Assembly (NCBI GenBank): GCA_016784165.1
Contig: JADHVD010000003.1
Span: forward strand, 6,867 to 70,866
From: Candidatus Woesearchaeota archaeon
GTDB lineage: Archaea; Nanobdellota; Nanobdellia; Woesearchaeales; BS150m-G63
DNA length: 64,000 nucleotides
Direction of reading: 5' to 3'
Below are positions 238-55,418 of the stretch, piece after piece (position 1 is the stretch's first letter; each line of letters opens with the position of its first letter). The position numbers were made by a program, and so were the translations under genes. The notes beneath the pieces are model-generated. The model saw nothing but the letters and a program-made list of their open reading frames with translations, was not told the DNA's origin and did no database searches.

Positions 238-3200
238 TTAAGGATTACCATAACTCTGAGCCAAAGTTCCTTTCAGTTTAAGATTCCCGCTATTATCAAA
301 GAAAGCTATTAAAGAATCAGAAGCATTAACAAACTTCAAAGCAGTTCCAGAAACACTCATAACAGCATTCTCAGTTAACTCCCCAACCAAATACAAATTC
401 CCAGTATTTGAAACATAAGCAATATTTGTTCCAGCATTATCTTGTAAAATAAAAGAATTAGCCCCAGGATTCAAACTACCTTGATTATCTGACAACACTC
501 CGCGGATAAACATATTTCCAGTATCATCAATACTTCCAACAATATTATCAGAACTATTAGTGATAGCAAACTTATTACTTGTAGGGATCAACAAACTCAT
601 TGTAACATATAAAATACTATTACTAGTAATATTAACTCCCTGCGAATCAACATCATACCCGCTCTTAGTGGTATTCATAGTATAATTAGTAAGATAATTC
701 TTAACACCAACAACCCAATCACAACTAGAACAATTTTCATAATATTCACTAATGTTTTGTTTTACTATCCATCCATCTCCACCACTTAAAACAGAAAATC
801 CCAAATCACCATTAACATTCCAAGCACTCACGTTAGCCCCACCAACATCCCCATTGCTATCATTCACATAGACATCTAGGTACCAGTTTACATAAAGCAC
901 ACCACTACCAGAATAATAAAACAAAGTAGCACTTTCATTAAAAGAAACATTTACAAAAGTGTTTGCACCAGCTGAAGTCCCCTCAATCCAAACATCAGCA
1001 TAATCACCCCAAAATAAAGAATTATCATCAAAAGTAGAATCTATAAATCTATTTCCAGATGAATTTAAGAAATAAACCCCTGCGTCTTGATTATCAGTAA
1101 CCAAAACATCATAAAAACTGTTGTTGTAAGAATCATCAAAGCTTACTCCTGAATAATTGTTATACTTTATCTCAACATCTGTAACATTATTGTTATTAGA
1201 TCCATCACTAAATTCAATCCCATCTAAATAAGAATTGTGTATTGTAAGATTATAAAGAGTGTTATTCTCACAAGCACTTGCTAATATAACTCCTGCTCCA
1301 AGTTGAGTCAAATTAAACAATTGATTATCAATCCTATTCCCTATAGATGAAGAATGAAGATATACAAAATTATCAGTAGGATTTCTTATAATATTTTCAG
1401 TTATATTATTATTACTAGAAGCATCTAACATTATACCATAATTATTACAGTTATCACAACCACCAGTTCCAATAAGCTCATTAGAACTTATTACACTATC
1501 ATCACAATTATCTAACTGAATCGCAGCAAAAATATCTCCACTCTGAGTGTCATTAATATAATTATCCTCAACAATATGTCCAGATCCCTCAACATAGATT
1601 CCACTTCCAGAAATATCATAGATGATATTATTAGTCACATTATTTCCAATTCCTCCAGATACAGAAATACCAACACTCCCAACTTCCCCATCCCCAATAT
1701 CTCTCACAGTGTTAGAATCTATGAGAATATTGTCAGCAGTATCAGAACCAATTCCTGCAACAGTGTAATTACTATCAACTAAATGAATTGAATTATTGAA
1801 AACATAACCATCATCAGAACCATCATCATAATATATTCCATAAGTAAAGTCAGTAATCTCACAGTTCTTAACAGTGACATTAGTAACATTATCTATATTT
1901 ATTGCAGTAAAAGTATCAACATAATTTGTATTATATTCTCCATCTATATGGTATCCTGCACAATCAAACACAACATCAGAAGCATTGATATTAAAACAAA
2001 GTTCAGTATCATTGTAATAATTTATACTTGCATTCATCTCATGAGTTCCACTCACAGTAATATTACTACAACTATCATAAGTATGGCTTGGATCATAAGC
2101 AAAATCAGTTACAGTCATCTCTTGATTACTGAATTCAAAAATTAAAGTAGCATAACCAGCAATATTCATATGGTTTACAAATCTTCCAATCTCACTACAG
2201 CTGTAATCCTCAATCAAAAACCCAACAGGTTTTATTGAATCATCACTACCAATTGAGCTATAATCATAAACATACCCATCACCACTAATAATTTTCAACA
2301 CATCAAGTAAAGAATCATCCCCACATTTTAGATCTACAAACCTCATCTCATCAACACTTCCACCATTATCAATCATAATCTCTTCCCAATAAGAGTTGTT
2401 ACTACTAATACTCAAATTAGCAGTTCCAGTGGTGTTAAACATCACAGTCCAAGTATCTCCATCACGTAGATATTCGATAGGATTCAACACATTAATTTCA
2501 ATCTCATAAGTTTGGTTAGATAGATGAGGCACTATCCATTCAACATAATCTACCAATCCATCATCAGTAGTATCATAACCATCAAAGTTTACGCTCTCAC
2601 GTTTTCCATCAACAATCCAATACAGATTAACACTCTCAACAGCACTTTCAGGAATAAAAGTATAAGCCAAAATATCTTCATAATGTATTTCAGAGCTCAC
2701 AACTATCCTCTTTAGCCCATTACCTAATTCTTCTTCAACAGCAGTGGGGCCGGGTAATTCATATTCTATTTCAATCTCATCAACAACTTCTTCAACAATA
2801 AGCTCTGTTTCATTCCCAATATCCTCTGCAACAACATAACCAGTAAATCTAAATAAGGATTTTAGCCAATTAAATAACTCAAACAACAACCCATCACCAA
2901 CTTCAGTAACCGCTCCACCAGTTATCAAATTGTGCTCACTCAATTCTTCAACTTCTTCACCCTTTTTAACAACAACTTTGTCAGAGATATCTTTCTCAAT
3001 CCTTCCAGTTATTTTCTTAACCTCAATATTGCTCGCATTTTTAGGCAATTCAACAATAAGATTTTTCTTAGGCGCAGTAAGTTTAACTTTTTTAATAAAT
3101 TTAACAGGACGATTAATCATAACTCTACCAATCATTTTTTCTTCTACACTAACATTAACAGTCACATTTTCAGTAATATTAACAATAACATTCTCAGTAA

Positions 3201-3834
3201 TATTAACAATAACATTCTCAGTAATATTAACACTAACATTAACAGTCACATTCTCAAGACTTATGTTTTCTATAGTTACTCCTTCTATGACTTCCTCAAC
3301 CACAGAAGCATTTTCTTCAACAACACCCACATTCTCAATAACTTTCAGAGTTTCATTAATACTGATATTTTCAGTAATATTAGTACTCACATTAATAGTC
3401 ACATTCTCCACACTTACAGCCATACTCACATTTTCAGTAATATTTTCAATACTCAAATTATCTAAACTAATATTGATTTCACCCACATTAATAGAAACAT
3501 CTTCAATAGAAACATTCTCCAAACTTATATTTTCAACACTTTCACTTTCAGTAATAGTAGTTACTACTTCTTCAGCCAAAGAGACATTTTCTTCAACATC
3601 AATTACACTAACAGAAACATTATCAATAATCTCTCCAACACTAGCATTGCCCAAACTTAAATTATCTAAACTAACATTTTCTAAAATTAGATTATCTAAA
3701 CTATTATTTCCAGCAACTAATCCAGTTATCAAAGGTTGAGTGAATGTAAGAACTAATGCTAATAGGATAATAATTCCTGCCCCCATTAATTCACCATACC
3801 CTTTCTTGTTCCAAACTCTTTTTTCCAAACTCAT
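238..3834 (-). CDS. Giant (1198 aa) membrane-anchored or secreted surface protein with right-handed parallel beta-helix repeats
   Basis: There is an N-terminal hydrophobic anchor (GAGIIILLALVLTFTQPLITGLVAG). A long array of ENVS/NIS/NIT short repeats follows. Beta-helix-like repeats are present (NCEITDFTYGIYY, ILIDSNTVRDIG, NNIIYDISGSGIYVEG). C-terminal repeats include GNMFIRGVL, GNLYLVGEL and GNLKLKGTL. N-x-S/T sequon density is very high. Confidence 0.85.
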   Translation of the reverse strand: MSLEKRVWNKKGYGELMGAGIIILLALVLTFTQPLITGLVAGNNSLDNLILENVSLDNLSLGNASVGEIIDNVSVSVIDVEENVSLAEEVVTTITESESVENISLENVSIEDVSINVGEINISLDNLSIENITENVSMAVSVENVTINVSTNITENISINETLKVIENVGVVEENASVVEEVIEGVTIENISLENVTVNVSVNITENVIVNITENVIVNITENVTVNVSVEEKMIGRVMINRPVKFIKKVKLTAPKKNLIVELPKNASNIEVKKITGRIEKDISDKVVVKKGEEVEELSEHNLITGGAVTEVGDGLLFELFNWLKSLFRFTGYVVAEDIGNETELIVEEVVDEIEIEYELPGPTAVEEELGNGLKRIVVSSEIHYEDILAYTFIPESAVESVNLYWIVDGKRESVNFDGYDTTDDGLVDYVEWIVPHLSNQTYEIEINVLNPIEYLRDGDTWTVMFNTTGTANLSISSNNSYWEEIMIDNGGSVDEMRFVDLKCGDDSLLDVLKIISGDGYVYDYSSIGSDDSIKPVGFLIEDYSCSEIGRFVNHMNIAGYATLIFEFSNQEMTVTDFAYDPSHTYDSCSNITVSGTHEMNASINYYNDTELCFNINASDVVFDCAGYHIDGEYNTNYVDTFTAINIDNVTNVTVKNCEITDFTYGIYYDDGSDDGYVFNNSIHLVDSNYTVAGIGSDTADNILIDSNTVRDIGDGEVGSVGISVSGGIGNNVTNNIIYDISGSGIYVEGSGHIVEDNYINDTQSGDIFAAIQLDNCDDSVISSNELIGTGGCDNCNNYGIMLDASSNNNITENIIRNPTDNFVYLHSSSIGNRIDNQLFNLTQLGAGVILASACENNTLYNLTIHNSYLDGIEFSDGSNNNNVTDVEIKYNNYSGVSFDDSYNNSFYDVLVTDNQDAGVYFLNSSGNRFIDSTFDDNSLFWGDYADVWIEGTSAGANTFVNVSFNESATLFYYSGSGVLYVNWYLDVYVNDSNGDVGGANVSAWNVNGDLGFSVLSGGDGWIVKQNISEYYENCSSCDWVVGVKNYLTNYTMNTTKSGYDVDSQGVNITSNSILYVTMSLLIPTSNKFAITNSSDNIVGSIDDTGNMFIRGVLSDNQGSLNPGANSFILQDNAGTNIAYVSNTGNLYLVGELTENAVMSVSGTALKFVNASDSLIAFFDNSGNLKLKGTLAQSYGNP

Positions 3835-8573: not shown

Positions 8574-9419
8574 ATGAAAAACCTAAAAGAGTATTTCTTA
8601 ACTTTTCTCAGAGGAATTTTCATGGGTACAGCTGATGCCATACCAGGAGTTTCAGGTGGTACAATAGCCTTAATCACAGGAATCTACGAAAGATTAATTT
8701 ACGCAATTAATAATATAAACACCCTAATCATAAAAGAATTATTCCAATTAAACATAAAAAAAGCATTCAAAAACACAAAAAAGCTCGACTTCAAATTATT
8801 TATTCCGCTTGCATTGGGAATCATAATAGCATTATTTACTTTCGCCCACATTATCAGTTATCTCTTAAAAAACCAAACAGCAATAACATATGCATTTTTC
8901 TTTGGCCTAATCCTTTCTTCAGCTTTCTTCGTGTACAAACATACACATAACAATCACCTAAAAAACATACCATCATTACTAATAGGAATTCTTTTAGCAA
9001 TTCTTATCACTGGATTAACAAAAACAGCAACAGCTCACACAAACATCATAATTTTTCTTTCAGGCGTAATTGCAATCTGTGCAATGATTTTGCCAGGAAT
9101 ATCAGGAGCATTCATACTTGTACTTTTAAATCAGTATGAATTCATCTTAAACCTAATAAAAACACTCCAGATAAACAAACTCTTGATTTTTGCATTGGGG
9201 GCAATAATTGGTATCCTCTCTTTTTCAAAATTAATCTCTTACCTCTTGAAAAAACACAAAAAACAAACAATGGCATTATTAACAGGGCTCATGCTCGGCT
9301 CATTAAGAATTCCTTTTTACAAGATAACTACAACATACACTAACATCTGGACAACAATAATCTCGGCAATAATAGGATTCACAATAGTATTCATTTTAGA
9401 AAAAAAATTCACTTCTTAA
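8574..9419 (+). CDS. DUF368-family polytopic membrane protein (candidate polyprenyl-phosphate recycling transporter)
   Basis: The N-terminal motif GTADAIPGVSGGTIALITGIYERL and a second PGISGAFILVLL repeat are typical of DUF368. The protein has multiple TM helices. Confidence 0.75.
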   Translation: MKNLKEYFLTFLRGIFMGTADAIPGVSGGTIALITGIYERLIYAINNINTLIIKELFQLNIKKAFKNTKKLDFKLFIPLALGIIIALFTFAHIISYLLKNQTAITYAFFFGLILSSAFFVYKHTHNNHLKNIPSLLIGILLAILITGLTKTATAHTNIIIFLSGVIAICAMILPGISGAFILVLLNQYEFILNLIKTLQINKLLIFALGAIIGILSFSKLISYLLKKHKKQTMALLTGLMLGSLRIPFYKITTTYTNIWTTIISAIIGFTIVFILEKKFTS

Positions 9420-10638
9420 TTTTTATTCCACCAACTTTTTCATTAATATATTCACATTCCACAATCTTCTTAACAAGCTCAGTAGGTCGCTTAAACTTTC
9501 TTTTCAATTTAGTATAAATTTTACCCTCACGAACATAGGTGTTAGCATATTTTTTTTTAAAATTTTCAACACGACTCTCCTCACTCAAAGGAGGGCCACT
9601 CCACTCATATTCATCACTCAAAACTTCTTTCTTCAAAATATACCAAAATAAAGCTTTCTTACTTTTATCCCATTCCCATCCATCACCAATCAGAGTAAAT
9701 TCATGTTTTCTAAAAGCCACACCAATATGTTCAAAAACTTTCAGTAATTTAGCACCAACAACATCTTCTTTTCCATCTAAAGCAGTAACATCAAACAGCA
9801 CCAACACATTTCCCGCACTCATTTTCCTAAGCTCATCAACATCAATTTTCTTAATCTTAAAAAAATCAGCACTAGGGTTATCCAAAAAAGATTTAGCATT
9901 ATCAATAAATAATTTAAATTTATCTTTCCCAAGTGCCGCAGCTGCATTTCTTTCCGGCATTATTGGATCCACTACAATAAGGGGTGAAATCAATTTAGAT
10001 TTATTCATTTCTTTTAACGCATTTCCACCATAAATATTGTGATGGTCCACAATAACTTTGCCACTCCATCCAACAGCACTCTTCAAAAAATTCAAAAATC
10101 CGCCGTAATGAATCACCAAAATATCTAACACATGACCAGAAAAACCTTTAATATAACTCTCAGCACCATACACTCCAATTCCTTTGCAAAACTGTTTCGC
10201 CAACCTAATATCATCTCTCAACCCAACATCACTATTTTTAATCACCCAATCAACATGCATTGGACTCATATCTGTAACATTTTTAGCATCACCAACATCC
10301 TTAATATCTAAAACAGGAACAATCTCAAAACAAAACTTATCAACAATCTTAAAATAATCTCTGCTTCCATGCACTAATTCAGGTTTCAATGGCTCTAAAA
10401 TATCCATCAACAACACACTAATATCTTCATCAACATATTTCATGTTAAATTTCATAAAAATATCAACATCATGGTCTCCACGAAGAAAAGTTCCTTTAGC
10501 AATAGAACCGCAGGCAAAAACCTTTACATCTAAACTAGACTTTTTCACAAGCTTCTCAAGTTTATCTAAAAACCTATTAATTTCTCTATCCACACCATTG
10601 GGTTTAATCTTACCCAACACATTTTTCAATAATTTCAT
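9409..10638 (-). CDS. cca: Archaeal class I CCA-adding tRNA nucleotidyltransferase
   Basis: The nucleotidyltransferase motif GSIAKGTFLRGDHDVDIF is present. The 409-aa length and overall pattern match the archaeal CCA enzyme. Confidence 0.8.
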   Translation of the reverse strand: MKLLKNVLGKIKPNGVDREINRFLDKLEKLVKKSSLDVKVFACGSIAKGTFLRGDHDVDIFMKFNMKYVDEDISVLLMDILEPLKPELVHGSRDYFKIVDKFCFEIVPVLDIKDVGDAKNVTDMSPMHVDWVIKNSDVGLRDDIRLAKQFCKGIGVYGAESYIKGFSGHVLDILVIHYGGFLNFLKSAVGWSGKVIVDHHNIYGGNALKEMNKSKLISPLIVVDPIMPERNAAAALGKDKFKLFIDNAKSFLDNPSADFFKIKKIDVDELRKMSAGNVLVLFDVTALDGKEDVVGAKLLKVFEHIGVAFRKHEFTLIGDGWEWDKSKKALFWYILKKEVLSDEYEWSGPPLSEESRVENFKKKYANTYVREGKIYTKLKRKFKRPTELVKKIVECEYINEKVGGIKIKK

Positions 10639-24340: not shown

Positions 24341-25150
24341 TTAGAGTTCATCTAAAGGGCTTTTTACCTTCTTCAATTCTTCTTTAGATACTCTTGTATA
24401 GATCTGAGTTGTTTGTAGATTGGAGTGCCCTAGTAATTCCTGTATTTTCCTAATATCTACTCCAGCCTCAAGCAGATGCGTTGCAAAACAATGTCTTAAA
24501 GTATGAGGGCTAACATTTTTAGTGATTCCAGCTCGTTTACTAGCATTCTTTACTATATCTTGTACATTCCTTGCACTAATCGCCCCATTCGGCCCTGAAA
24601 ACACATATTCCGACTCAGAAACCCTGCTTCCAAGGTATTTTTTCAATTCTTTAATCAAATTTTCAGAAAGAATAACAATTCTATCTTTTTTACCTTTACC
24701 GCCACGAACCCAAGCAATTTTTTCATCAAATTCAAGATCCCCCTTTTTTAACCCAATACATTCACTTAATCGTAAACCAGAAGAATATAACATTTTGATA
24801 ATCAATTTACTTTTTTCAGTTCCTGCAGAATTTATCAATCTTCGCACTTCTTCTTTAGAAAGCACAATTGGTAGCTTTTTATCAATTTTAGGGGTTTTGA
24901 AATTAACAACCCCTTTTTTTAGCACTTCATCATAAAAAAACTTTAACGCAGCTTTTACTAAACTAACAGAAGAAGCAGAATAATTTTCATCAGTTAAAAG
25001 ATGGCCAATATATTTTTTTATATCATCTTCCAAAACATCATCCGGCGTTTTTTGGATATATTTAAGAAACAGCCTATTATAATACAAATAAGCCTTCAAA
25101 GTCTGCTTACTAAACCCCCTTAATTTCAATTCCGTAATTAATTTTTCCAT
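24341..25150 (-). CDS. xerA: Tyrosine recombinase of the XerA/XerC/XerD type
   Basis: The catalytic region HTLRHCFATHLLEAGVDIRKIQELLGHSNLQTTQIYTRV and SGLRLSECIGL (Arg box) are present. The N-terminal SAM-like core-binding domain is LRGFSKQTLKAY. Confidence 0.85.
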   Translation of the reverse strand: MEKLITELKLRGFSKQTLKAYLYYNRLFLKYIQKTPDDVLEDDIKKYIGHLLTDENYSASSVSLVKAALKFFYDEVLKKGVVNFKTPKIDKKLPIVLSKEEVRRLINSAGTEKSKLIIKMLYSSGLRLSECIGLKKGDLEFDEKIAWVRGGKGKKDRIVILSENLIKELKKYLGSRVSESEYVFSGPNGAISARNVQDIVKNASKRAGITKNVSPHTLRHCFATHLLEAGVDIRKIQELLGHSNLQTTQIYTRVSKEELKKVKSPLDEL

Positions 25151-47255: not shown

Positions 47256-48524
47256 TTATGAATTATAAATTCTTAATTGATTTCTTCCATTTGTTTTTGC
47301 TTTATATAGTGCTTCATCTGCTCTTTTTATGAAAATATCTGTTAGAAGATTCATTTTTAAGTCTTCATCATTTAATATATCTGTTAAATTTTTATTTATT
47401 TCTTTAGAATAAATTTCTGCTTGGTCTTTTATTGATTCTAATCCATATAAAATTTGCCCATTTTTTAATCCTGTAAATTTGGAATAAATTTCTAATAAAG
47501 GAATTATTTTTAATTTATTTTTAACATATTTATTTATTAATACTTGTCCTGATTTTCCTTTTAAAATTCTTATTTCTGGAACTTCAAAACTTGAAACAAC
47601 ACCTATGCTAGTGTTTATATTAACTTTTTCTTCTTTACCCGTATGTATATTTTTAAAATAAAAATTTGTTTTTGATAAGTTTATCCTATATTGATCTAAT
47701 TTATTAATTATTCCTTTATAAAATTTTGATGAATTGTCAAAGTTTGCAAAAGAAATAAGAAATTCTTCCCCTCCAAATCTACCATGCAAGTCCCGACTTC
47801 TAAAACTATTTTTACTTAATTCTGTTGTTTTTCTTAATACTTCATCTCCATTCAAGTGTCCATAATTGTCATTTATTCTTTTGAAGTGATCCAAATCATA
47901 CATTGTAAGAACTATTTCAGGAGTATTAGTTGCACGAAAATTTAATAAAGTTTCTAATTCATTTTTCAGTTTTTCTTTGAATGTTTTCTTCCTAAATAAT
48001 CCTGTTAATTCATCTATTCCTAAAAAATTATCATGATATTGGATTAATTTTCCAAAAGCAGGAATTATTTCTTCAATTTTTATTTTATCCACTTCAGTAA
48101 ATCCATTTTTTTTATTTAATAATTGTATCGCCCCAATTATATCTCCATTTGCTTTTATCGGGATTGTTAACATATTTTTTGTTTTATAACCAGTTTGGCT
48201 ATCAAATAATCCTAAATGATAGGGGTTTTTTTTAACTTCATTGCACAAATCAGTTTTTCCTTCTGTTATTACTTTTCCAACTATTCCTTGATTAATAGAT
48301 AATCTTTTTCCAACTAAACCCTCTTCCCCACCAATAACATCCTTAAAAATTAATTCATTACCTTCTTTTATAAATAAAGAAGCAGCATCTGCACCAGTCA
48401 TATCTTTACATTTTAAATTCATATATTTAATCAAATTCCTAATATCTGTATCAAGATAATCAAATAATTCCATTAATGTGGTTTTGGTATGATTTTCTAA
48501 ATTTAATTTATCCTCTATATTCAT
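47256..48524 (-). CDS. GAF-domain plus GGDEF-domain protein (predicted diguanylate cyclase) with a large insertion in the GGDEF domain
   Basis: The motifs are DELTGLFRKKTF, MYDLDHFKRINDNYGHLNGDEVL, the I-site RSRD, the active site RFGGEEF (47760-47774), TSIGVV and RADEALYKAKTNGRNQ. A TATA-like CTTTAAATAG lies about 26 nt upstream of the ATG. Confidence 0.85.
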   Translation of the reverse strand: MNIEDKLNLENHTKTTLMELFDYLDTDIRNLIKYMNLKCKDMTGADAASLFIKEGNELIFKDVIGGEEGLVGKRLSINQGIVGKVITEGKTDLCNEVKKNPYHLGLFDSQTGYKTKNMLTIPIKANGDIIGAIQLLNKKNGFTEVDKIKIEEIIPAFGKLIQYHDNFLGIDELTGLFRKKTFKEKLKNELETLLNFRATNTPEIVLTMYDLDHFKRINDNYGHLNGDEVLRKTTELSKNSFRSRDLHGRFGGEEFLISFANFDNSSKFYKGIINKLDQYRINLSKTNFYFKNIHTGKEEKVNINTSIGVVSSFEVPEIRILKGKSGQVLINKYVKNKLKIIPLLEIYSKFTGLKNGQILYGLESIKDQAEIYSKEINKNLTDILNDEDLKMNLLTDIFIKRADEALYKAKTNGRNQLRIYNS

Positions 48525-53016: not shown

Positions 53017-53088
<72 letters not shown>

Positions 53089-53096
53089 CTTTTTTT

Positions 53097-53170
53097 GGGC
53101 CCGTAGCTTAGCCTGGTAGAGTGCTCGACTGATAATCGAGTGGTCCCGAGTTCAAATCTCGGCGGGCCCA
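53097..53170 (+). tRNA. tRNA-Ile (anticodon GAU); no encoded CCA
   Basis: The acceptor stem is GGGCCCG/CGGGCCC, the anticodon stem CTCGA/TCGAG with loop CTGATAA, and the T arm CCGAG-TTCAAAT-CTCGG. Confidence 0.9.
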
Positions 53171-53310
53171 CTTTCATAATTAACTCACATAAATATTAAT
53201 TAAAGAGATAAATCAAAGGAATTACAAAGTGATTAAATCAACAGAGTTGATTTACCTCGCTTCTGGGGGGCTACGACCCAAAACGTAGGTTCCAAATCTC
53301 GGCGGGCCCA
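53171..53310 (+). mobile_element. tRNA-Ile-linked mini-unit 1 (140 bp): a 48-bp conserved left end, a hairpin, a small stem-loop, then a 31-bp right end copying the tRNA-Ile 3-prime end
   Basis: The left end at 53171-53218 is identical to 53311-53358. The hairpin TAAATCAAC-AGA-GTTGATTTA is at 53234-53254. The right end AAAACGTAGGTTCCAAATCTCGGCGGGCCCA is at 53280-53310. Confidence 0.5.
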
Positions 53311-53461
53311 CTTTCATAATTAACTCACATAAATATTAATTAAAGAGATAAATCAAAGAGATAATTATGGGATGAGATATAACAAACGAAGTGAGTTATT
53401 ATCTCATACTAATTTCCGGAGCTACTACGGAAAACGTAGGTTCCAAATCTCGGCGGGCCCA
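53311..53461 (+). mobile_element. tRNA-Ile-linked mini-unit 2 (151 bp) with the same architecture and a different central hairpin
   Basis: The left end is at 53311-53358. The central hairpin is ATGAGATATAAC...GTTATTATCTCAT. The right end at 53431-53461 is identical to 53280-53310. Confidence 0.5.
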
Positions 53462-53496
53462 TATTTCCACTCAACCACCAAATTAATTTTTATAAA

Positions 53497-53826
53497 ATGA
53501 ATTACGAAATAGATAAACAAAATTATAGAATCCTAATTTCAGGTTCTACAAAAGAAATTAAAAAATGCATAATTTCTTTAGATCAGATAATCACTAAAGG
53601 TAATTGTTTACCTCAACTAGAAGAAGATTTAAAGAATTTACACAAAATTTACGAACCAACACAATTTAATTTTAACCGAATCGAAAGAATATATTACACA
53701 AAAAATTCATTACTTTTTGTGCCAAATGTTTCTGCAAAAGAATTTTATTTTCCAATTCTTGAAAAACATTTCGAACAAGCAAAAAAATACCTCACAAAAC
53801 AATCTTCACTGGACATTTTCACATAA
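53497..53826 (+). CDS. Hypothetical protein
   Basis: This is a 109-aa ORF with no recognised motif and no Walker A. Confidence 0.4.
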   Translation: MNYEIDKQNYRILISGSTKEIKKCIISLDQIITKGNCLPQLEEDLKNLHKIYEPTQFNFNRIERIYYTKNSLLFVPNVSAKEFYFPILEKHFEQAKKYLTKQSSLDIFT

Positions 53827-53858: not shown

Positions 53859-55418
53859 ATGGCTTCAGCTAGTGAAAATAATACAGAAGCAGCTATTACT
53901 CTAGCGCTCGAAACAATAAATATACAAAAACAGGCAATAGTTTTTGCAAATACCAGACTTTCTGCAGAAAAAACAGCAGAAGAGATGGCTAAAAAAATAA
54001 AACAATCAGACCAAGAAAATTTAGCAGAATTAGAATATGAAGTTCTTCACGCCCTAAGCACCTCGACAAAACAATGCAAAAGACTAGCTTTCTGTATAAA
54101 AAAAGGAATCGCGTTCCATCACGCAGGGTTAGCACCAGCCCAAAGAAGTTTAATAGAAGATTCATTCAGAAAAGGAGATATTAAAGTGATTTGTTGTACG
54201 CCGACTTTGGCATATGGTCTTGACCTTCCAGCATTTAGAGTAGTCATAAGAGACCTTAAAAGGTTCACTTACAGAGGTATGCAATATATCCCAGTTCTAG
54301 AATATCTCCAAATGAGTGGAAGGGCAGGCCGTCCAAAATATGATAATTATGGAGAATCCATAGCAATTGCAAACACAGAAAAAATAAGAGATGAAATTAG
54401 GAAAACATACATCAAAGGAAAACCAGAAACAATTTATTCTAAATTAGCTGCAGAACCAGTACTTAGAACTTATATTCTTTCATTAATAGCATCAGAATTT
54501 GTTGGAACAAAAGACCAATTATTTAATTTTTTCAGCAAAACTTTTTGGGCCCATCACTACCAAGATATGTGGCAACTTCAGAAGATAATAGATAAAATGA
54601 TGGACCTCTTAGAAGAATGGGAATTCATAAAAACAGATAAGAAAGATTTTATGTCTGCCGACGAAGATTATAAAATAAACACAACAAAACTCGGAAAAAG
54701 AGTGGCCGAACTCTATATAGACCCTTTAACAGCAAACTTTTTCATAACTTGTTTGAGAAACGCAAGCTCAAAAAAACCAGAAGATTTTTCTTATTTCCAA
54801 ATGATAAGTAATACATTAGAACTTAGACCTTTGTTAAGAGTAAAACGAAAAGATGTTGATTTTGTAGAATCAGTTTTACTAAGACACGAAGATGCCCTTT
54901 TAGAAGACACAGATGTTTATGAATCAGAATATAATGATGAATATAGCACTTTCATGGCCTCAATAAAAACCGCCCTATTTTTTAAAGATTGGGTAAATGA
55001 AAAAGATGAAGAGTTTCTCTTAGAAAAATTTGATATTAAGCCAGGAGAAATAGCTTCAAAATTAGAAAGAGGAAACTGGCTATTATACACAGCAACAGAG
55101 TTATCAAAACTTCTTGGTTTTAAAGGGCTAATCACAGATTTAATCAATCTGAGATTAAGATTGAAATATGGTGCAAAAGGAGAACTTCTTCCACTATTAA
55201 AATTCAAAAACATAGGAAGGGTTAGAGCAAGAAAACTATTCAATAATACTATCAAGGATGTTTCAGGAGTAAAAAAAGCAGATTTCATGAAACTATCTCA
55301 ACTTTTAGGCAATAACACAGCAGTAAATATAAAAAAACAAGTAGGACAAGATTTTACAAAATTAAAAGTCAAAAAAGGAAGAAGAAAAGGCCAAATGAGC
55401 TTAAAAAAGTACAGTTAA
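53859..55418 (+). CDS. Ski2/Hel308-type helicase C-terminal portion (RecA2, winged-helix, ratchet and HhH domains), lacking the RecA1 half
   Basis: It begins at motif IV (QAIVFANTRLSAEKTAEEMA). Motif V is TPTLAYGLDLPAF and motif VI is QMSGRAGRPKYD. No Walker A or DEAH motif occurs anywhere in the ORF. Confidence 0.7.
   Translation: MASASENNTEAAITLALETINIQKQAIVFANTRLSAEKTAEEMAKKIKQSDQENLAELEYEVLHALSTSTKQCKRLAFCIKKGIAFHHAGLAPAQRSLIEDSFRKGDIKVICCTPTLAYGLDLPAFRVVIRDLKRFTYRGMQYIPVLEYLQMSGRAGRPKYDNYGESIAIANTEKIRDEIRKTYIKGKPETIYSKLAAEPVLRTYILSLIASEFVGTKDQLFNFFSKTFWAHHYQDMWQLQKIIDKMMDLLEEWEFIKTDKKDFMSADEDYKINTTKLGKRVAELYIDPLTANFFITCLRNASSKKPEDFSYFQMISNTLELRPLLRVKRKDVDFVESVLLRHEDALLEDTDVYESEYNDEYSTFMASIKTALFFKDWVNEKDEEFLLEKFDIKPGEIASKLERGNWLLYTATELSKLLGFKGLITDLINLRLRLKYGAKGELLPLLKFKNIGRVRARKLFNNTIKDVSGVKKADFMKLSQLLGNNTAVNIKKQVGQDFTKLKVKKGRRKGQMSLKKYS

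Follow-up and report, generated by a model that had tools for sequence, protein, structure and literature searches.

What is the DNA that separates a tRNA-Ile gene of a Woesearchaeota archaeon from its native trailer, and how did it come to end, twice, in the last bases of that same tRNA? The locus lies in a stretch of 64,000 nucleotides (Candidatus Woesearchaeota archaeon, assembly GCA_016784165.1, contig JADHVD010000003.1, positions 6,867 to 70,866 of the forward strand; hereafter the window), in which a first-pass annotation had noticed that the 3′ end of tRNA-Ile is triplicated, with two small units of shared architecture behind the gene, and had read this as the footprint of two tandem site-specific integrations. 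Comparison with relatives identifies the units as inserted DNA, and their divergence points to a miniature form that is older than this insertion and changes slowly. We tentatively favour, with a confidence somewhat short of even, the reading that they are two miniature integrase-less modules bounded by attachment (att) sites and inserted by a tyrosine integrase at the T-loop/3′-end site of the tRNA gene.

The target gene itself is intact. ARAGORN and Rfam call tRNA-Ile(GAT) at 53097-53170 and, as the upstream member of the same tRNA cluster, tRNA-Asn(GTT) at 53017-53089, both on the plus strand and both with 70.3 bits to the Rfam tRNA model. The last 18 nt of tRNA-Ile, CAAATCTCGGCGGGCCCA (the core), run from T-loop C56 to the discriminator A73 and occur in three exact plus-strand copies where none is expected by chance: copy 1 within the tRNA gene (53153-53170, the attL side), copy 2 at the junction of the two units (53293-53310) and copy 3 on the attR side (53444-53461). 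No further copy with up to three mismatches was found in the 64-kb window. The triplication therefore stands as first noticed, although the exact block measures 18 nt and not the 17 nt originally given. Unit 1 (53171-53310, 140 bp) begins on the base directly after the tRNA-Ile discriminator (53171), in the same orientation as the tRNA, and is followed by unit 2 (53311-53461, 151 bp); both are non-coding, and without the core the modules measure 122 and 133 bp. Each opens with a conserved left end of 48 bp starting with CTTTCATAATT (53171-53218 and 53311-53358, identical to one another), continues with a variable interior of 61 bp in unit 1 (53219-53279) and 72 bp in unit 2 (53359-53430), and closes with a conserved 13-bp right end, AAAACGTAGGTTC (53280-53292 and 53431-53443), followed by the core. 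Right end and core make up a 31-mer shared by both units (53280-53310 and 53431-53461), and the GTTC in the right end mimics the tRNA bases just upstream of the core, with a 1-nt indel. The resulting order, tRNA[core]-unit1-[core]-unit2-[core]-native trailer, agrees with the layout of the first-pass annotation, as do the repeated 48-bp sequence and the 31-mer. The native trailer (53462-53496, plus strand) carries the first oligo-T run after the tRNA, a T5 at 53487-53491.

Loci from relatives, contigs and unitigs designated here by L numbers, were fetched for comparison of the site and of the flank behind the third core. Two units are present in the window and in L001/L002, L005-L007 and L009, which belong to the same strain or population; one is present in L131, whose flanking genes are 87-95% identical at the nucleotide level; and none in L137 (80% amino acid identity in the neighbouring 109-aa protein, p109), L023 (helicase 70% identical in amino acids) and L136 (helicase 64% identical). 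The tRNA-Ile sequence is the same in the window and L131 and, over the 69 nt compared, in L137, where it is followed directly by the trailer and the 109-aa gene. In L131 one unit lies between two cores, and the CCATTC after the last core resembles the CCATTTTC trailer of relatives. A native trailer behind the last core, together with empty sites in relatives, therefore marks the units as inserted DNA, as the proposed footprint of insertion at the tRNA 3′ end implied. The gene for p109 (53497-53826) could be ruled out as part of the insertion, because L137 has it beside an empty site. A 3.5-kb insert in the gap between tRNA-Ile and the helicase gene of L037 was considered as a full-size relative and rejected, since it encodes repeat-domain surface proteins and lacks a second core. 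In L007, a 100-N scaffold gap (L007:197-296) falls inside unit 2, so that its two-unit count is not fixed.

The bases behind the cores bear on the history of the tRNA gene as well. CCA is encoded after tRNA-Ile in relatives (GGGCCCACCA; L023:5201 and L120:1204), in L131 (2412, 2563) it stands after the last core and not after the functional tRNA, and in the unit-bearing strains the tRNA is followed by CTTT, so that the insertion has taken the encoded CCA from the tRNA-Ile gene. A gene for a CCA-adding enzyme is present in the window (9409-10638, minus strand).

The array is no assembly artefact, an outcome that the first-pass annotation had listed as fatal to its idea. It is also found with two units in the ENA assemblies ERZ24794647, ERZ24794644, ERZ24794648 and ERZ24794656, the last of which (L009) shows a few single-nucleotide polymorphisms (SNPs), and its right end recurs in a contig of the metagenome-assembled genome (MAG) GCA_014383515.1 and in a Logan unitig; in all, at least five independent assemblies reproduce the array. 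Many short-read contigs do break inside it, as is to be expected of repeats of 31-79 bp, and unequal exchange would be possible between its direct repeats of 66-79 bp, which lends some room to the explanation that the array is artefactual or that a single unit was duplicated locally by unequal crossing-over between cores and then diverged in place. Nevertheless, identical arrays in independent assemblies, the SNP variants and the one-unit allele contradict an artefact, and local duplication is contradicted by interiors that are ~45% diverged while strains with flanks differing by 5-13% share unit 2 and a relative with 80% identity has no units at all. Because strains 5-13% apart already share unit 2, divergence in place would be far too slow, and we regard this explanation in both of its forms as extremely improbable. 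Logan unitigs L132:1 and L133:1 begin at GCTACTACGG and imply a graph branch one base upstream, hence a further unit-2 stem-loop variant in samples ERR13319672 and ERR13325268.

The ends of the two units are identical (48 bp on the left, 13 bp plus core on the right), whereas the interiors are only ~55% alike; still, their global alignment scores 19.5 against -2.5 ± 6.7 for shuffles, a value matched by 0.2% of them, so the interiors are collinear homologues, in both of which a long hairpin and a small stem-loop occupy corresponding positions. The claim that structure is kept despite sequence divergence is thus well founded. Since the interiors differ by ~45% and the flanks of one-unit and two-unit strains by 5-13%, the divergence of the interiors cannot have arisen in place, and the mini-form predates this insertion, the two units having diverged outside this locus. 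The comparison of the window with L131 indicates in addition how slowly a unit changes. Outside the core, unit 2 differs at 5 of 133 positions, in contrast to 64 of 346 four-fold degenerate sites (18.5%) in three flanking genes (P = 4e-7), a difference about five times lower, and the adjacent trailer can no longer be aligned. The three SNPs within the unit 2 interior spare the stems, two falling in the hairpin loop and one on a bulged base. Because it changes about five times more slowly than four-fold sites, unit 2 does not look like a drifting scar; it is probably either under purifying selection or was recently exchanged, and not neutrally decaying.

These observations bear directly on the explanation that two full-size viruses or plasmids integrated successively and decayed to their att-adjacent sequence, leaving inert scars that today neither function nor move. 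Archaea and bacteria alike often have partial tRNA copies left by integrated elements, and tandem or degenerate remnants, beside their tRNA genes (PMC9897764, PMC5704250), the tRNA-Ile/helicase interval varies in content across Woesearchaeota, and neither a parent nor an integrase nor a second locus came to light in the collections scanned, all of which would suit such scars. Two independent decays, however, would not yield collinear homologous interiors of 61 and 72 bp with the same two hairpins, nor ends that are 100% identical around interiors so far apart. The slow change of unit 2 beside a trailer that has diverged beyond alignment, and SNPs that avoid stems, point the same way. Given how the interiors line up and how slowly unit 2 changes, we consider inert scars unlikely.

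The structures preserved in the interiors are of two kinds. The hairpin of unit 1 (53234-53254) has a perfect 9-bp stem and a 3-nt loop and is reached by 0.13% of shuffles, and that of unit 2 (53372-53407) has 12 bp with one bulged base; both lie where the first-pass annotation had placed hairpins of differing sequence. The small stem-loops (53264-53280 and 53415-53431) have 4 bp each. Between the units, two pairs of this stem are altered on both sides (G-C to C-G) with all positions still paired, so that the covariation claimed for it holds good to the extent of two compensatory pairs from two independent sequences only. The loop GCUAC can pair with the CGUAG next to it, as had been pointed out, and minimum-free-energy folds use the alternative CUACG/CGUAG pairing. 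Compared with shuffled sequences, the plus strand of unit 2 has a better fold (z = -3.16), whereas unit 1 falls within the ordinary range (z = -1.64).

Could the units then be RNA modules? A precedent is found in the tRNA-linked repeats (TLRs, or RtT; RtT = Rfam RF00391; rrA/rrB/rrF) of E. coli, known since 1978 (Egan & Landy 1978; Rudd 1999; PMC8144298), of which 22 units are spread over ten loci. At each locus, between one and five of them stand head to tail immediately behind a gene for a tRNA or 5S rRNA; a unit is about 100-180 bp long and ends in 18-19 bp of that gene's 3′ end, while the function of the tRNA-linked members is still unknown (PMC8144298). By analogy, the archaeal units would be co-transcribed as a 3′ trailer of tRNA-Asn/tRNA-Ile, with the copies of the tRNA 3′ end serving as processing signals that delimit structured RNAs of ~140 nt; the same processing idea has been proposed for E. 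coli RtT and RrA/B/F. We verified the layout on E. coli MG1655, where tyrT-tyrV has six copies of the terminal 19 nt of tRNA-Tyr, spaced 178 bp apart (L140, 1286300-1288100). The compensatory changes and SNP placement that preserve the stems, the fold of unit 2 and the slow evolution of the units relative to four-fold sites would all fit an RNA. No oligo-T run of at least four lies between tRNA-Ile and the T5 found 26 nt past the last core, but this is also true of 34-45% of shuffles; a selected lack of terminators in the array was accordingly rejected as not significant, although the composition is compatible with read-through from the tRNA. A separate promoter would be unneeded, and no match above 5 bits was obtained on either strand of the array with a matrix of B-recognition-element (BRE)/TATA weights built from 18 upstream regions of the window (consensus about GAAAACTTTTATATA); the candidates of a transcription start at the edge of the variable part and of a promoter in the 48-bp left end were dropped for want of such a match.

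Other features speak against the units being such RNAs. The fold of unit 1 is ordinary, no Rfam family including RtT matches at E ≤ 10, and there is no sequence similarity to E. coli TLRs. The two tRNA genes are separated by a spacer of 7 nt (53090-53096) that is a T7 run throughout, and runs of this type are expected to terminate transcription in archaea. An 18-nt copy alone cannot form the acceptor/T-arm recognised by archaeal tRNase Z and RNase P, and to the best of our knowledge archaea do not possess RNase E. We therefore hold the RNA modules to be a doubtful explanation, while noting that it concerns function and is compatible with an integrative origin.

The longest open reading frame (ORF) in the array has 42 aa, and all ORFs of at least 20 aa that overlap it have 20-42 aa; most of them run through the tRNA-derived core, and none is supported as a gene. 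The units are thus, as first stated, far too small to encode an integrase, and no integrase is encoded in the array, which is flanked by genes for small proteins without family and for a radical SAM and a helicase-related protein. In the units, neither ARAGORN nor Rfam detected a tRNA, and at E ≤ 10 Rfam returned no other family above noise. A split-tRNA half or tRNA 3′ half was rejected, since no T-arm is possible when GUAGGUUC before the core cannot pair with CUCGG. A C/D-box small RNA has in its favour only an sR44 match of 13.9 bits, where the gathering threshold is 45; this match spans the core on the minus strand and has no proper C/D boxes. The suggestion that the units are an inverted degenerate 5′ end of tRNA-Ile (TTTTGGG-TCGTAGC versus TTTTGGGCCCGTAGC) did not withstand comparison with shuffles (P = 0.10 and 0.49). 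A miniature inverted-repeat transposable element (MITE) was dismissed for the lack of terminal inverted repeats, the left end CTTTCATAATT being compared with the reverse-complemented right end GAACCTACGTT, and a CRISPR array because the repeated block has 79 bp (versus 23-50), the "spacers" are homologous and no cas domains occur in the 30 window proteins scanned.

The site of insertion speaks for a tyrosine integrase. The identity block starts in the T-loop, the classical sublocation for these enzymes, and a block from T-loop to 3′ end is described as a standard att sublocation (Williams 2002, as cited in PMC9897764). Among the marks of an integrated element, the array displays direct repeats of the 3′ part of a tRNA with the intact tRNA on one side and has empty sites in relatives; an integrase of its own is the mark that it lacks. 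The core is moreover not peculiar to this genome. Alone it is widespread, being common to tRNA-Pro of Thermoplasmata and tRNA-Ile of DPANN archaea, and on the Thermoplasmatales contig CAYGAC010000028.1 (a MAG) the identical CAAATCTCGGCGGGCCCA bounds an insert of 8.3 kb at tRNA-Pro (L061:125-8000 plus L034:1-482). This element encodes a tyrosine integrase, a Rep protein (PF23343) and NosD/beta-helix proteins, and its integrase ORF ends inside the core (...NGPAEI*). Since CAAATCTCGGCGGGCCCA bounds an integrase-bearing element, it is a working attachment core for archaeal integrases, in keeping with the integrative site at a tRNA 3′ end that had been proposed for the window.

Two side observations concern tRNA-Pro genes. 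In many Thermoplasmata, the core of tRNA-Pro is followed by a similar small-hairpin trailer, TCTC..ACAGGAGAAAA, which also forms the left end of the L061 element and was seen in L014, L025, L067, L082, L091, L105, L110, L115, L117, L125 and L126; the choice lies between a native trailer that has been conserved and an integrated family that has spread widely. In a further Thermoplasmatales tRNA-Pro locus (L098, reverse strand, 2693-3470), an 11-nt partial copy of the 3′ end, CGGCGGGCCCA, lies ~770 bp downstream and may represent a small remnant or a short element.

On the favoured reading, each module would have been spliced in by site-specific recombination with the crossover within the 18-bp core, between T-loop and discriminator, and would have brought its own copy of the core, preceded by the imperfect, tRNA-like GTTC; two such insertions would give the order observed. 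Because the modules encode nothing, we infer a tyrosine integrase that is supplied from elsewhere, either in trans or in cis with a full-size neighbour element that excises via the outer core. The invariant ends, 48 bp on the left and 13 bp on the right, around the core may constitute the recombinase-binding part of the attachment site, and an accessory or cargo part would be formed by the interior, which has diverged but kept its two hairpins. Loss of a unit would proceed by ordinary homologous recombination between the 66-79-bp direct repeats.

A different enzymology is conceivable, in which a transposon-like element without the core is inserted at the tRNA 3′ end by an enzyme that duplicates ~18 bp of the target, as happens when casposons or CRISPR spacers are integrated. 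The 3′ ends of archaeal tRNA genes are targets of casposons, whose insertion there duplicates the target. The E. coli repeats offer a reason to take this route seriously: the body of the TLR behind tRNA-Tyr and that behind the 5S gene of rrnB (L141, 4171500-4172300, where an 18-mer overlapping the 5S end occurs twice) are homologous, with a local alignment score of 41 against 21 ± 3.9 for shuffles, and yet each ends in its own gene's 3′ sequence, which suggests that the family spread by a process copying the local target. For the archaeal units, terminal inverted repeats are lacking, only one locus is known, and no casposase or Cas1 was found among the scanned proteins near the locus and 20 other ORFs of 231-413 aa. 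In addition, the GTTC before the core is an imperfect extension with a 1-nt indel, for which reason an element-carried core is favoured over a clean target duplication. We accordingly consider target duplication very unlikely here.

Several points nonetheless weigh against miniature modules moved by a tyrosine integrase, and one of them comes from L131. Its single unit has the interior of unit 2 behind the left-end variant that L009 carries in unit 1, a variant with two SNPs, at positions 5 and 15. Such a unit is what homologous deletion between the 66-79-bp repeats should leave, so that deletion accounts for the one-unit state better than fresh integration does, and the sole polymorphism seen, two units versus one, does not require an integrase. 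The only recombinase among the 30 window proteins scanned is a tyrosine recombinase of 269 aa (24341-25150, minus strand; Phage_integrase plus N-terminal SAM-like domain), 28 kb from the array, which by size and architecture looks like the host XerA. A circle of 140 bp alone is an unlikely recombination substrate, and the attP junction of such a circle would be identical to the unit 1/unit 2 junction, so that short reads cannot tell a circular form apart. The homologous body of the E. coli TLRs with its locus-specific terminal copies points, by analogy, to a target-duplicating mechanism.

Further units or parents would have strengthened the case, and the searches for them were negative. The collections were scanned with exact patterns (right end plus core, left end, and stem-loop plus right end), which diverged relatives would escape. 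No further unit or parent was found by exact matches to four patterns in IMG/VR, no further unit by exact-pattern scan of the GTDB species representatives, and only the same contig in the JGI metagenomes. BLAST against phages and plasmids returned AT-rich noise only, BLAST over the rest of the window gave no further unit, an nhmmer profile gave none in 871 kb of fetched loci, and no matching parent occurs among the relatives of the L061 integrase in IMG/VR. The two known unit types both come from one species-level lineage. Tandem mini-units are likewise absent from the 119 loci with the core, and none of 118 archaeal tRNA genes in the fetched loci has its own last 14 nt repeated within 1.5 kb downstream, in a search that recovered the E. 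coli control. The check recommended with the first-pass annotation, namely to look elsewhere for the 48-mer, the 31-mer and integrase-bearing elements, hence came back empty, and the family of miniature elements that it envisaged is unproven, with no other unit, parent or matching integrase in the collections scanned.

The surroundings of the array are those of an ordinary chromosome, which helicase homologues and a syntenic GTDB genome assign to Woesearchaeota (DPANN). The gene order radical-SAM protein, (113-aa ORF), tRNA-Asn, tRNA-Ile, (109-aa ORF), helicase-related protein is conserved, the small proteins near the array have no family match, and the rest of the window encodes ribosomal proteins, eIF2-gamma, GAPDH, PGK and the CCA-adding enzyme. 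The helicase-related protein (519 aa, 53859-55418, plus strand) carries Helicase_C, HTH_61 and archaeal helicase domain 4 and lacks a DEAD/RecA1 domain at its N terminus; its length is kept across thousands of Woesearchaeota/Nanoarchaeota homologues, and its gene adjoins tRNA-Ile in the loci examined (L023, L037, L062, L120 and L024). The neighbouring tRNA genes vary in their introns. The tRNA-Asn gene is intronless in the window, while its ortholog has an intron of ~33-36 nt after the anticodon loop in L131 (2225-2337) and L136 (2735-2843), a difference that reflects recent loss or gain, and DPANN tRNA-Ile genes with the same 3′ end have introns at several positions, including the D-loop and around the anticodon (L120:1087-1203; L062, reverse, 2126-2261; L024, reverse, 3676-3783; L013, L037 and L096). 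Elsewhere in the window, a protein with GAF and GGDEF (diguanylate cyclase) domains is encoded at 47256-48524 on the minus strand of this DPANN archaeon; cyclic di-GMP signalling proteins are, to our knowledge, unusual in archaea.

How, finally, does the array relate to systems already described? The first-pass annotation had been aware of no such elements in archaea, and while no TLRs were described for archaea in the literature searched, a claim of novelty would be too strong, as E. coli TLRs share the architecture (PMC8144298) and integrase-less elements of the type discussed below are established in bacteria (PMC5704250). The TLRs are, judging by layout, the closest architectural precedent. 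The archaeal units likewise stand directly behind a tRNA gene in the same orientation, as two tandem copies (one in L131, compared with one to five for TLRs), and the last 18 bp of both are an exact copy of the upstream gene's 3′ end that starts in the T-loop, as it does for tRNA-Tyr. The sequences themselves, from bacteria on one side and archaea on the other, have nothing in common: the RtT model finds four copies in E. coli and none in the archaeal units (E ≤ 10), and alignments of the units with TLR bodies score no better than shuffles. E. coli units within a locus are nearly identical, whereas here the interiors have diverged by ~45% between identical ends; the E. coli core includes the encoded CCA, whereas the archaeal core stops at the discriminator; and some of the E. 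coli members are demonstrably transcribed and processed. The E. coli repeat is proposed to be recognised by RNase E, an enzyme not known from archaea. Alike in layout but not in sequence, the two are best regarded as analogues and not as homologues.

A second comparison can be made with cis-mobilizable elements (CIMEs), bacterial integrase-less elements that have kept attL and attR, as in the integrative and conjugative element (ICE)/integrative and mobilizable element (IME) systems of Streptococcus; they move in cis with a full-size element integrated beside them and accrete in tandem at tRNA genes (PMC5704250), and other cases are on record in which elements have accreted in tandem with partial tRNA copies between them (PMC5704250; tycheposons). 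The units of the array, flanked by copies of attL/attR type, devoid of genes for integration or transfer and arranged in tandem at a tRNA gene, would fall under the definition of a CIME. CIMEs, however, are kilobases long and recognisable as derivatives of ICEs or IMEs, whereas the units measure 122-133 bp without the core and no parent was found. By analogy, the units fit the logic of CIMEs at a size that is one to two orders of magnitude smaller. We know of no CIMEs described in archaea.

Full-size archaeal elements (the 8.3-kb element of CAYGAC010000028.1, Pyrococcus yayanosii PYG1, and those with SSV-, pTN3- and pNOB8-type integrases) resemble the array in having repeats made of the tRNA 3′ part and empty sites in relatives. 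Partial tRNA copies are routine for integrated archaeal elements of 9-23 kb (PMC9897764). The full-size elements differ from the units, which encode nothing, in spanning 8-23 kb and carrying their own integrase (PMC9897764). With MITEs the units share small size, non-coding and structured sequence, presence/absence polymorphism and, under the integrative reading, an enzyme supplied in trans; they depart from them in having no terminal inverted repeats, in being bounded by an 18-bp repeat of a specific tRNA and not by a short generic target duplication, and in occupying one locus instead of being dispersed.

What these comparisons would mean depends on which reading holds. Tandem copies of a tRNA 3′ end are usually taken for scars of large viruses or plasmids, and here the elements between them have only ~130 bp. 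If they are true miniature integrative modules, site-specific integrases would join transposases within the MITE concept, and the mobilome of DPANN archaea, of which almost nothing is known, would become more accessible; should they instead be RNAs processed from the trailer, archaea would have their own counterpart to the E. coli TLRs, whose function has been open since 1978. In either case, annotation pipelines should not label such fragments tRNA genes, and assemblies tend to break there. We surmise, as a rather improbable extension, that the units are the first archaeal members of a cross-domain class, including the E. coli TLRs, of structured modules of ~100-180 bp at the 3′ ends of stable RNA genes. 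Its members would join on to these ends by copying or carrying the last ~18 nt, persist under selection and spread as miniature elements devoid of genes; behind such a class there would have to be either a general unknown mobilisation of DNA at tRNA 3′ ends or a conserved class of tRNA-trailer small RNAs. As it stands, the array combines known kinds, the accretion at tRNA sites with the logic of CIMEs and the architecture of TLRs, in a domain and a lineage in which neither has been described.

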